From the NCBI GenBank assembly GCA_919902675.1, contig CAKKRH010000010.1, positions 38,614-102,613 on the forward strand: DNA of 64,000 bases. Reading direction: 5' to 3'. This document shows positions 38,763 to 45,736 of this stretch, in pieces. The DNA is from Omnitrophica bacterium GWA2_41_15 (GTDB lineage: Bacteria > Omnitrophota > Gorgyraeia > Gygaellales > UBA12090). How positions within the stretch are numbered: the stretch's first letter is position 1; the number at the start of each line of letters is the position of its first letter. A program made the position numbers and the translations under genes. The notes beneath the pieces are model-generated. The model searched no databases. It had not been told where the DNA came from and saw only the letters and a program-made list of their open reading frames with translations.

Positions 38763-39191
38763 TCATTTCTTCCACTTATTGTATACTTTTTTATTATTGA
38801 TAATAATTGCATACAAACTATTCCAACTTATCCGCCAACTTGAATTTATTGATCCGGGCTTAGAATTCTTAAAAATAAACTCAGTTGCATTTTTCGTTGA
38901 CAACACCTCTTTACAATGTGGACACCTGGGTTTTGTCAACCGAGTGAATTTTCCTCCACATTCGCATTTCTCTAGAAACTGCTCTATGTCTCTATTGATT
39001 TTTTCGTACCTATCTTTAATCTTAAAAAAACAAAGACATGCTTGGGGAATTTGTTTATAATGTTCTTCCAAAAAGAGTGTTTTTCCACAACTATCACAGT
39101 AAGCATATGTGGTCTCATTAAAGCCATTATGGATTAATTCATATGAAAATTTGAAGCCACATTTATTACAATAGCCGATTTCTTTTTTCAT
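38763..39191 (-). CDS. Double zinc-ribbon small protein; candidate immunity protein for the RHS C-terminal toxin
   Basis: CNKCG...CDSCG and CECGG...CPHC; 142 aa; very AT-rich; immediately 3' of the RHS gene. Confidence 0.45.
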   Translation of the reverse strand: MKKEIGYCNKCGFKFSYELIHNGFNETTYAYCDSCGKTLFLEEHYKQIPQACLCFFKIKDRYEKINRDIEQFLEKCECGGKFTRLTKPRCPHCKEVLSTKNATEFIFKNSKPGSINSSWRISWNSLYAIIINNKKVYNKWKK

Positions 39192-39199
39192 GTTCTTGA

Positions 39200-45100: not shown

Positions 45101-45736
45101 TTTATCGGTTACCACCCAGGAGCTTCCATCATAGGCGAATTTGCTAAAGGAGGATTCTATCTCAGGGCGATACTGGCTTCCGCTAGCCTTGACCAACTCC
45201 GCGTTTACTCCGCTTGAACTGAAGATATAACTATCGGTGCCGTCGTATTTGGCTGTGCCTTTACGGGTGGACACCTCTATGGCCCCTAATTCCAGGCTCC
45301 AGCCAACTCCGGCTATACCGTTAGCCTGTCCGGAGGCATACAACAGGCTGAGATTAGGCTGAATACCCTTCCTGCCTCCGGGAGCATCTATAGGTATGCT
45401 AAATGAGGCCCGGCCGGTAAAGGGGTCGCTTTGAAATGACTGCAGTGCCGATAGATTCGAGCCTATGCTTTTAGTCTGAGGCATCCAGCCTACCGCCCCT
45501 TTAGGCTTGGTGTTCTTATCCGGCGGATTAATCTCTTGGGGCTTCTTGGCCTGGGTGGAGCTGTCACCGGAATCAGCGCTTCCGGAGGAAGATGCCTTAG
45601 GACTAACCGAGGCCTGTCTGGATACTCCCTTTACGCTCTTATCAGCGGCCAAAGCCAGGTCCCTGGAGCAAAAGACTGCCAAATGGGTTATTATCAGCAA
45701 AACGGCTATTGATTTGTAAAGATATTTTAGGTTCAT
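39200..45736 (-). CDS. RHS/YD-repeat polymorphic toxin, Tc-toxin B/C-like fusion (SpvB-like N-domain, FG-GAP beta-propeller, YD repeats, RHS core, variable C-terminal domain)
   Basis: Signal peptide; SpvB-like IPIDAPGGRKGIQPNLSLLYASGQANGIAGVGWSL; six DxNxDGxxD FG-GAP repeats; many YD repeats; RHS core YYDPDIGRFITPD...NRYSYCNNNPINYTDPSGH (DPxGx autoproteolysis site); then a glycine-zipper hydrophobic stretch and an approximately 100-aa terminal domain. Confidence 0.9.
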   Translation of the reverse strand: MNLKYLYKSIAVLLIITHLAVFCSRDLALAADKSVKGVSRQASVSPKASSSGSADSGDSSTQAKKPQEINPPDKNTKPKGAVGWMPQTKSIGSNLSALQSFQSDPFTGRASFSIPIDAPGGRKGIQPNLSLLYASGQANGIAGVGWSLELGAIEVSTRKGTAKYDGTDSYIFSSSGVNAELVKASGSQYRPEIESSFSKFAYDGSSWVVTDKSGIKYYFGQTSSSRQDYGSKVFRWSLNRVEDLYNNYLTISYTKEDNQLYPSRISYTGNSGNSLEPAYSVQFSYESRSDSIINYRPGFKATMAKRLSEIKVKYQDEQVRRYVLSYATSQNSRSLLSSVKTYGQDNNISLPEISFEYQQQSQGWQASGTSYSIPPYANFDSGCVIVDVNNDTYPDIIRKRYYGDNYTENHSFLFDSSVSAWKETTNWQISPHIWSYTGDQGVRFADINGDGWVDLVQNFQTKEGGVINSINLNNKQSGWESSSGWSFPSGKYIAVARYDEYHDWHESQGVILADLNSDGYADYVYCRSDSRITYLNNKSSGWSENSSWALPDGDLRDGTQLVDLNADGLLDLVIASDTSSLGRKTYLNTGGGWARESSLDPPSDANINDNSTQFADVNNDGLADILINKGSSLRKTYINTGLGWKEDSSWKMTTGDFTDGTRVLDVNSDGQLDFIHHPTDSETSSYINPSPYPELLKQIDSGIGGSIEITYKSSSQYSNSGSDTQSDLSFPIYAVSQSQLSDGRGNSYSTNYSYKDGVFDFSEREFRGFGYCKVTDSDGNYSESYFKQDSVYKGKPYKQETRDSGGNLYAKAENTWSKKELYSGVNFAYVSQADSYIYDGDSSYKQTRLTYEYDDYGNPAKVQSQGNVSESGDERTLTTEYSYNTSDWIVGLPKSVKLADASGERVTQRWFYYDGADSYDASASHGLLTKEEAWLYNSQDASEKKLSSQYSYDSYGNLTKATNSKGYATTTEYDSTLHSYPTKITNSKGHTLNNEYDYQTGQVTKSTDSNSQATEYRYDSLGRLTSAIGPKDSESLPGISYEYNLSSQPIKVTKKVKSDYSGNYLATYQFSDGLGRMIETKSPAQDESYQVVSGIVTYDSKGQVNKQYLPYLVSNDSSFSSPSYSGYYFSFDYDPVGRLTQNTNPDGSYSSTSYSDWTTTKTDENGNYHTYYNDAYGRLTKVEEHNDSQVYTTTYTYDIQGNLTKVKDAKGNTSSIYYDSLGRKVKMDDPDMGVWSYEYDDLGNLTKQTDAKEQVLEFEYDELNRLTKKKVTSPESKTLVSYTYDDSSKENYKGRLSKISDQSGSTEFWYDSLGRETKSTKTIDSTSYSVEKEYDTLDRLTKLKYPDSNYLEYTYSAQGPTKVRNGYMDKDYVKEVNYNASGQITYIKYGNDVETNYTYDEKTLRLSTLKTEGSQGTLQNLSYEFYSNGNVKGITDSQYGSNQSFSYDNLNRLTSASGSYGSIDYSYDSIGNMLSNGSTTYSYNSDKPHALSGLSDGSSFEYDSNGNLKEKTTSESKTINYTYDYENRLTKTSPEGSDESVSASVSLTLNPGWNFFALPLIPESLEISSVFSSIFSKYNQISRYNPKDEKFEHYVKNSDFNQFTSLEYGRGYQVYISSLSSVSLTVSGKTSSDQMTKSLKKGWNLIGCPSKNSITVKSALNNLERDSDYDSLQEYYTDSKKYIAMGTEANMIVGQAYFIHCLKDASWKLSYDQDATSATTNFTYDGDGGRVKKYVSSSGLTTTYVGSLYEVDSQDSAKKHIYLGSQRVLTVNGLQEPHYYHSDHLGSSNVISDADGKKEQRIEYYPYGKTYLSDGTKTTNYKYTGKEEDPTTALYFYGARYYDPDIGRFITPDTIVPNPYNPQDLNRYSYCNNNPINYTDPSGHKWSWKKFWNSFAGGVVAALVAVIASPFIWPMLTGAIAGAAGGATTAGLSGQNAGDGALWGAAFGLGTGILGEGVAGIFKNVGRQIFDAGVVIASGITAYQQNGAEGFWGGVFGSGLVTGISSGFTYGEASSLSEAPTPRGFWETFWDITSFCQSIKQFNDTPSFMNGLGLIADSLALLAPGVPGGAGIASKVINKGDDLTRVRHYTNKAGKEAMEQAGKLNRHAFVTKADAFPKGTRATTIESKLGIGAGKGKYHFDLNVKQSDLYVPGVKHGGENTLPGKIWQRRLNRGYEIE

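Follow-up and report, generated by a model that had tools for sequence, protein, structure and literature searches.

The DNA analysed here, hereafter the window, is a stretch of 64,000 nucleotides from Omnitrophica bacterium GWA2_41_15 (contig CAKKRH010000010.1, positions 38,614 to 102,613), whose minus strand carries a gene for a large RHS protein of 2178 amino acids (aa) and, beginning 8 nt beyond its stop codon, an open reading frame (ORF) for a 142-aa protein of the family DUF8255. The exact RHS protein is deposited as MEK6564042.1, a "toxin TcdB middle/N-terminal domain-containing protein" from a metagenome-assembled genome of Candidatus Omnitrophota. An earlier note, made from the sequence of this DNA alone, had described it as a secreted protein combining an SpvB-like domain, six FG-GAP repeats, YD repeats and an RHS core that ends in DPSGH, and Pfam and NCBIfam searches together with a motif scan agreed with this architecture. 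FG-GAP_3 was matched in four stretches of the protein, a regular expression located six D-x-N-x-D-G-x-x-D motifs (aa 387, 446, 514, 563, 616 and 665), and ten Y-x-Y-D-x-x-G motifs lie in the RHS/YD shell. The proposed resemblance to the BC component of Tc toxins was borne out as well, since in a sequence search of the PDB the closest solved relatives were TcdB2-TccC3 fusions (E 1e-38), YenB/YenC2, TcdB1/TccC2 and several Rhs proteins of type VI secretion (T6SS), while the label "teneurin-like" has its basis in the common YD core only. Overall, we consider it probable that the locus encodes a naturally fused TcB-TcC-type RHS toxin with a HYD1-like ADP-ribosyltransferase (ART) tip and DUF8255 as its immunity protein, tip and immunity gene forming a swapped cassette.

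The sequence DPSGH (aa 1880-1884) closes the Rhs-associated core, both aspartates of the autoprotease motif are present, and the segment from RYYDP to DPSGH is presumed to comprise the aspartyl autoprotease and its cleavage site, with cleavage expected by analogy with the established biology of Tc and RHS proteins. Within the YD shell, an insert of 170 aa consists of two repeats, L.PGWNFFALP...GRGYQVYI and KKGWNLIGCP...GQAYFIH. It found no credible match in Pfam (one short match stayed below threshold), is kept at 40% identity in the orthologue at locus L001, and may, by analogy with the domains that interrupt the shell of the mosquito protein SGS1, act as a surface receptor-binding domain.

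Behind DPSGH lies a cargo of 294 residues in three modules. Counts of composition and of GxxxG motifs agreed with the Gly/Ala-rich hydrophobic stretch that had been described past the core: its first 130 or so residues contain 22% Gly and 16% Ala, with 11 GxxxG motifs observed against 6.1 expected from composition-preserving shuffles (p ~0.016), including the runs G1940-G1944-G1948-G1952 and G1999-G2003-G2007-G2011, and a single strongly hydrophobic stretch spans aa 1894-1925. This glycine zipper and the pre-toxin hairpin that follows it are common to five database proteins (P0001-P0005, 53-84% identity), three of which run into unrelated tips past LLAPGVPGG. The motif W-E-T...D...A-x-P-G-V-P-G-G also stands ahead of the toxins of the otherwise unrelated proteins P0040, P0041 and P0064, the last of which has an extra domain of about 170 aa, HINT-like by eye, between the pre-toxin motif and the toxin. 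Judged from these comparisons, zipper and hairpin are a module that is reused with other toxin tips. Two further resemblances of the tail were rejected: homology to SGS proteins, because the SGS1 and SGS4 alignments past the core vanish once the core is removed, and a match of the Gly-zipper tail to NtMOC1 in the PDB sequence search, which was compositional only.

The third module is the terminal domain of about 100 aa, which had previously been left without assignment. A word-indexed search with the 108-aa tail alone found no homologue; an exhaustive HMMER search of 1.84 billion representatives (E<=1e-3) recovered 54 representatives, each matching at the extreme C-terminus of its protein, several of them on long RHS carriers (1206-3032 aa). 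With these relatives and its characteristic start, RVRHYT, the domain is real and conserved. In the family alignment, T12, L51, L71 and Q90 are invariant, and H10, I20, G24, V32, T33, E48, G56, G58, P74, G80, T83, G86 and G87 are nearly so. The HYD1 signature published by Zhang et al. consists of a conserved H, [RK], [FY] and [DE] in this order (PMC3482391), and the order found here, H10 (>=90%), R/K at about 27-28 (in the majority), an aromatic residue at 31 and E48 (>=90%), appears to agree with it if the positions are equated as we propose. The AlphaFold (AF2) model built from the family alignment reached a mean pLDDT of 94.6 and a pTM of 0.84, and its top Foldseek matches in the PDB were nearly all ART folds, namely CC0527 (2o0q), Agrobacterium protein 6b, Salmonella Rhs1 TreTu (7zhl/7zhm), Tpt1/KptA, SPN NADase, HopU1, PARP16 and PARP10. 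Furthermore, 31 of 48 toxin-family members matched the Pfam family Tox-ART-HYD1 (PF15633) at E<=1, with a best E of 3.3e-5. With an ART-like model at the edge of Tox-ART-HYD1, the domain appears not to have a structural, non-toxin fold.

The 142-aa protein was assigned to DUF8255 through the precomputed PF26783 annotation of its homologues, 22 of 23 of which carry it (E down to 4e-89). As noted before, it is a double CxxC protein downstream of the toxin, with one zinc ribbon formed by C8/C11/C32/C35 and another by C76/C78/C90/C93, and the family has the invariant motifs HNGFN, YAYCDSCG, CECGG and PRCPHC. It has no signal peptide, which fits a toxin acting in the cytoplasm. A Pfam scan of the protein returned nothing beyond weak zinc ribbons, and in particular not Imm-My6CBD, the published HYD1 immunity family; its structural model (pLDDT 89.7) had no neighbour in the PDB or BFVD, and our literature search found no paper mentioning DUF8255.

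The pairing of toxin and downstream gene was followed through a sample of toxin loci, and a metagenome scan with a 10-sequence sub-alignment of the toxin family was among the searches. Two subclades make up this family, one marked by R-H-[YF]-T and D63, here named RHYT, and the other by V-[VA]-H-[YF]-T. Directly 3' of every sampled RHYT toxin there is a DUF8255-like ORF (the window, L001/L002, L009, L049, L050, L056/57, L058 and L059/60), that is, in seven of seven independent lineages with 36-88% toxin identity, and the DUF8255 profile scored these ORFs at E 1e-12 to 1e-60. At L009 it is again a HYD1-like toxin that stands directly upstream of DUF8255. The four VVH[YF]T lineages that were sampled each have, in its place, an unrelated gene of about 83 aa (pattern FPVG..VRV..W.WHHPL..YHGGD.LY.L..WHE.CL), which matched no Pfam family, My6CBD included. 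The partition between toxin subclade and downstream gene family is perfect (Fisher p=0.003). Because a DUF8255-like gene adjoins the toxin in all seven RHYT lineages and the sister subclade has another gene in its place, the role of DUF8255 as immunity protein of the RHYT toxin is well supported by these sequence comparisons. Outside Omnitrophota, the toxin-linked relatives (L049, L050, L056-L060) share 21-31% identity with the window protein and represent a short form in which the second CxxC of ribbon 1 is missing (CDxDST for CDSCG) and the C-terminal APGTxKGWRWQ is absent.

DUF8255 was also found in RHS loci with other tips. At L003 a new RHS tip is followed by a 200-aa gene and then by DUF8255, and at L014 (Candidatus Omnitrophica UBA6215, DISH01000007.1, 1785-15702) six orphan core-plus-tip fragments come after one full RHS gene, with small genes, often of membrane type, in between and a DUF8255 copy at 8001-8405. 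Immunity genes that were displaced but retained would be expected to show such a pattern; a search for HYD1-like pseudogene remnants upstream of DUF8255 in both loci found none.

The comparison with the RHS orthologue at L001 bears on the history of the tip. Identity rises along the protein from 50-53% in the body to 58% in the Rhs core, 67% in the Gly zipper, 75% in the pre-toxin segment and 88% in the ART domain, and the DUF8255 proteins of the two loci are 80% identical. In the RHS body, the GC content at third codon positions (GC3) amounts to 0.58-0.61; it drops to 0.27-0.29 across the pre-toxin and toxin segments, and the 142-aa gene has 0.31. Because the tip is 88% and the body 51% identical to L001, and GC3 changes from 0.60 to 0.27, the toxin/immunity tip is likely a cassette swapped between diverged RHS genes. 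A search of the window for further RHS cores, toxin tips, DUF8255 copies or an orphan tip/immunity array found none.

Coordinates of the RHS locus and of related features (window positions unless a locus is named)
Feature	Coordinates	Strand	Basis
RHS polymorphic toxin gene, 2178 aa	39200..45736	-	ORF; domain searches
Sec-type signal peptide, aa 1-31, ending ...LALA before ADK; then a Ser/Pro/Lys-rich linker to about aa 100	45644..45736	-	by eye
SpvB/TcaC N-terminal domain, aa 105-263	44948..45424	-	Pfam PF03534, E 2.5e-18; PDB matches YenB, TcdB1, SpvB
FG-GAP (integrin-like) beta-propeller, aa ~380-680, six Ca-type motifs	43697..44599	-	Pfam FG-GAP_3, E 8e-20
TcdB middle/N-terminal domain (TcdB_toxin_midN), aa 659-797	43346..43762	-	Pfam PF12256, E 2.8e-23
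RHS/YD-repeat shell, aa ~800-1884	40085..43339	-	RHS_repeat PF05593, E 2.8e-43; YD_repeat_2x TIGR01643, E 1.2e-19
Two repeats of ~85 aa inserted in the YD shell, aa 1542-1711, 'GWN..P ... G.GY..Y'	40604..41113	-	sequence and self-alignment
Rhs-associated core, aa 1804-1884, RYYDP...DPSGH	40085..40327	-	TIGR03696, E 1.1e-22; aligned to the TccC3/YenC2 core
Gly/Ala-rich hydrophobic 'glycine-zipper' module, aa 1885-2015	39692..40084	-	composition and GxxxG enrichment; conserved in P0001-P0005
Conserved pre-toxin hairpin, aa 2016-2078, FWETFWDI...GLGLIADSLALLAPGVPGG	39503..39691	-	motif recurs in P0040, P0041, P0064; GC3 drop at start
C-terminal toxin, putative divergent HYD1-like ADP-ribosyltransferase domain, aa 2079-2178	39203..39502	-	conserved H2088, F2109, E2126, D2141, Q2168
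DUF8255 (PF26783) double zinc-ribbon protein, 142 aa, candidate immunity protein	38763..39191	-	homologues' annotation; 8 nt past RHS stop
Second candidate immunity family, ~83 aa	L051 9686-9940; L052 8311-8880; L053 3753-4310; L054/L055 4768-5019		downstream of VVH[YF]T toxins
Secreted fn3/Ig-repeat protein, 558 aa, directly upstream of the RHS gene	45826..47502	-	Pfam

Regarding the neighbourhood, the claim that no TcA-like gene lies nearby was borne out across the window: no gene of TcA size is found in the 39 kb on one side or the 18 kb on the other, none of the other ORFs is longer than 1110 aa, and the large ones that were scanned (a histidine kinase, an aldehyde dehydrogenase, an fn3/PKD protein, a type II secretion system (T2SS)-type ATPase and a molybdopterin oxidoreductase) are unrelated to TcA. 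The 558-aa fn3/Ig protein has a weakly similar gene (32% over 142 aa) at the same position on L001 and could serve as an adhesin or cocoon partner, its membership of the system being uncertain. Farther upstream, the minus-strand region 47543-56866 encodes two radical-SAM-looking ORFs (HydE/HydG-like maturases by eye), a molybdopterin oxidoreductase assigned by Pfam, and NrfD-like and 4Fe-4S ferredoxin-like ORFs (by eye), genes of anaerobic energy metabolism that are unrelated to the toxin. On the other side, a low-GC3 island extends over about 32200-39700 (0.31-0.36 compared with approximately 0.50-0.60 elsewhere in the window) and starts in the RHS tail near aa 2016. Its six genes beyond DUF8255 encode a 553-aa protein with a Gly/Ala-rich hydrophobic C-terminal end and no Pfam match, a 190-aa protein, an LpoB-like lipoprotein, a protein with a weak, sub-threshold DUF1425-like match, a trypsin/LpoB/CsgG-like protein of 533 aa and a 164-aa protein. 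A perfect sigma-70 consensus (TTGACA, 16 nt, TATAAT) lies at 38245-38272 on the minus strand, about 45 nt upstream of the gene for the 553-aa protein; its place ahead of this next gene suggests that RHS and DUF8255 are transcribed as a unit of their own, apart from the downstream genes.

For the proposed mechanism we start from what was observed directly, i.e., the domain architecture, the family memberships, the fold of the model, the adjacency across lineages and the breaks in composition and identity. A Candidatus Omnitrophota bacterium would export the fused TcB-TcC-type RHS protein by the Sec pathway, and the SpvB domain, the FG-GAP propeller and the YD shell would together form a closed cocoon around the cargo. 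The Rhs core would cut after DPSGH(1884) and leave the 294-aa cargo inside. Once released at a target cell, the hydrophobic module may, by analogy with known systems, insert into or permeabilise the membrane and carry the ART domain into the cytoplasm, where the latter would, by its predicted enzymatic activity, ADP-ribosylate an essential target; its characterised relatives act on the translation machinery. In the producer, cytoplasmic DUF8255 would bind and block the toxin and thereby protect the cell, a mode of neutralisation that we infer.

Several results weigh against this reading and have to be set beside the evidence in its favour. No outer-membrane export route was identified, and the role of the Gly zipper in translocation is argued purely by analogy. 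Regarding the enzyme, the Foldseek search of the toxin model against the PDB gave nothing at E<=0.001, with TM scores of ~0.45-0.5, and the canonical beta5 position holds no invariant acidic residue and instead an invariant Gln (Q2168). The window toxin itself scored 15.2 bits (E 0.035) against PF15633, below the gathering cut-off of 25 bits, and a search of PDB sequences with the toxin-family profile, in which the Tre23 chain 7pq5_L was included, left Tre23 undetected at E<=10. Because the family profile misses Tre23, we describe the tip, from its sequence and model, as a divergent HYD1-like ART and not as a certified member of PF15633. Regarding the cassette, the low-GC3 tract runs about 6.5 kb past DUF8255, to ~32.2 kb, and because it continues through six unrelated genes, composition alone does not delimit the cassette and AT-richness was rejected as a cassette-specific marker. 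The AT-rich, swapped tip proposed in the earlier note is accordingly retained for its identity gradient and its GC3 break, but not for an AT-rich tract limited to the tip/immunity pair. Regarding the immunity gene, a toxin link was present at only two of 40 genomic DUF8255 loci from more than 10 phyla, both in Omnitrophota, and no RHS core or HYD1-like toxin lay within 8 kb at 36 of the 40. The stand-alone copies are 45-63% identical between phyla, which is unusually conserved for an immunity family.

These last figures speak for the view that DUF8255 is not an immunity protein at all but a widespread cellular zinc-ribbon factor, e.g., a nucleic-acid or ribosome binder, that merely adjoins the toxin, or else a chaperone or cofactor of the ART. 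The stand-alone copies have varied neighbours (FtsK, DnaJ, RimK, a LysR regulator, a transposase), in a clustering no neighbour was conserved across phyla, conservation being limited to related Acidobacteriota, and a Pfam scan of 20 neighbour ORFs gave unrelated families or no assignment; the conservation of HNGFN, YAYCDSCG and PRCPHC across phyla and the missing fold match point in the same direction. The perfect adjacency in seven diverged toxin lineages, the joint partition of toxin subclade and downstream family, and the copies inside RHS orphan-tip arrays nevertheless argue against it, and polymorphic toxin systems are known to include orphan immunity genes apart from their toxins (PMC3482391), so that we regard this view as unlikely. 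The immunity claim of the earlier note therefore stands for the sampled RHYT toxins, each with a DUF8255-like gene directly downstream, and has to be qualified for the family at large, most genomic copies of which have neither an RHS nor a HYD1-like toxin beside them.

A more far-reaching idea, to which we give similarly little credence, is that DUF8255 could be a broad defence against RHYT-type ARTs, acting as a reversing enzyme or as a target mimic, so that the stand-alone copies in Acidobacteriota, Gemmatimonadota, Proteobacteria, Verrucomicrobiota and others would protect across phyla against Omnitrophota-like attackers, and that the TcA-less cocoon could deliver its cargo autonomously by means of the glycine zipper.

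Still less probable, in our view, is that the cocoon represents the BC part of a three-component Tc toxin. In that case the FG-GAP propeller would serve as the docking site for a TcA pentamer from another part of the genome, and the pentamer would inject the cargo, perhaps into a host cell, eukaryotic or other. The identity of the best solved relatives and the joint presence of SpvB, propeller and TcdB_midN would be in keeping with such a toxin, but no TcA-like ORF was found either in the window or on the 9.3-kb contig of the orthologue, the presence of a cognate immunity gene suggests that the producer, too, has the target, and a strongly hydrophobic cargo would not be expected to pass through a TcA channel. 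Equally improbable is that the Gly zipper itself is the main toxin, a membrane-depolarising pore former with the terminal domain as an accessory and DUF8255 not the main immunity factor: GxxxG enrichment, one transmembrane (TM)-like segment, known glycine-zipper toxins such as EsxX and the ionophores of contact-dependent inhibition (CDI), and the conservation of the module while tips vary would speak for it, but immunity proteins of pore formers are normally membrane proteins, none of which is encoded beside the RHS gene, at least four different enzymatic-looking tips follow the module, as would be expected of a delivery or pre-toxin module, and DUF8255 tracks the terminal domain even where the linkers are quite different (L049, L050, L056-60).

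With the fused RHS toxin, its ART tip and its DUF8255 partner as the preferred reading, the study extends the catalogue of RHS polymorphic toxins and leaves the overall picture of such toxins unchanged. For the terminal domain, it newly proposes a function, placing it in a divergent, HYD1-like subclade of ADP-ribosyltransferases that comprises 54 representative clusters, and for DUF8255 it offers a first functional hypothesis, whose basis is the joint partitioning of toxin and immunity families across lineages. A poorly described toxin subfamily is thus paired with DUF8255 in an otherwise ordinary kind of bacterial weapon. Additionally, a TcB-TcC-type cocoon in Candidatus Omnitrophota that bears a hydrophobic pre-toxin module provides a tractable case for studying delivery by cocoons without TcA.

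Known systems resemble the locus in different parts. Mosquito SGS1 (PDB 8fjp; PMC9935623) likewise has a Tc-like YD shell with inserted receptor domains, and a predicted transmembrane cargo of about 230 aa is shielded in this shell behind an aspartyl-protease site (PMC9935623). For Tde1, translocation into prey depends on a GxxxG motif (PMC10240207). SGS1 is a eukaryotic protein and Tde1 a T6SS effector, and their likeness to the window tail is one of analogy, the tail having no sequence homology of its own to SGS. The solved folds closest to the toxin model include the minimal ARTs Salmonella Rhs1 TreTu and CC0527 (probability 0.8-0.87, TM ~0.46), at a sequence identity of 11-14%. TreTu is, like the window toxin, an RHS tip, and its immunity protein closes the active site like a lid (PMC9825190); its active site is of the R-H-h type, whereas the window family has H-[FY] and conserved E, D and Q.

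Closer in kind is Tre23, the Tox-ART-HYD1 tip of the Photorhabdus laumondii Rhs protein Plu0353 (PMC8661411), which is, as the window tip is predicted to be, an ART of about 100 aa at an RHS C-terminus, and which shares with it an HxT on strand 1, an aromatic residue on strand 2 and a small immunity gene downstream. Its toxicity requires His8 and Tyr33, and it modifies helix 44 of the 23S rRNA (PMC8661411); characterised RHS-borne ARTs target 23S rRNA (Tre23), EF-Tu (TreTu) or tRNA. Tre23 is associated with PAAR and the T6SS, whereas delivery in the window would proceed by a Sec signal and a BC cocoon, and the immunity family is DUF8255 instead of Tri23 or Imm-My6CBD.

Overall, the locus adds one more member to a known class of RHS polymorphic toxins, TcdB/TcaC, which Zhang et al. 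(2012, PMC3482391) defined by a signal peptide, SpvB, an integrin-like propeller and RHS, and with which HYD1 toxins were not listed in that study. With this class (PMC3482391; solved examples TcdB2-TccC3 and YenB/YenC2) the window protein shares the signal peptide, SpvB, the propeller, TcdB_midN, the YD shell, a core with DPxG, a variable tip and a downstream immunity gene, whereas it differs from it in that B and C are naturally fused with no TcA nearby, and in having the 170-aa repeat insert in the shell and the long hydrophobic pre-toxin segment.

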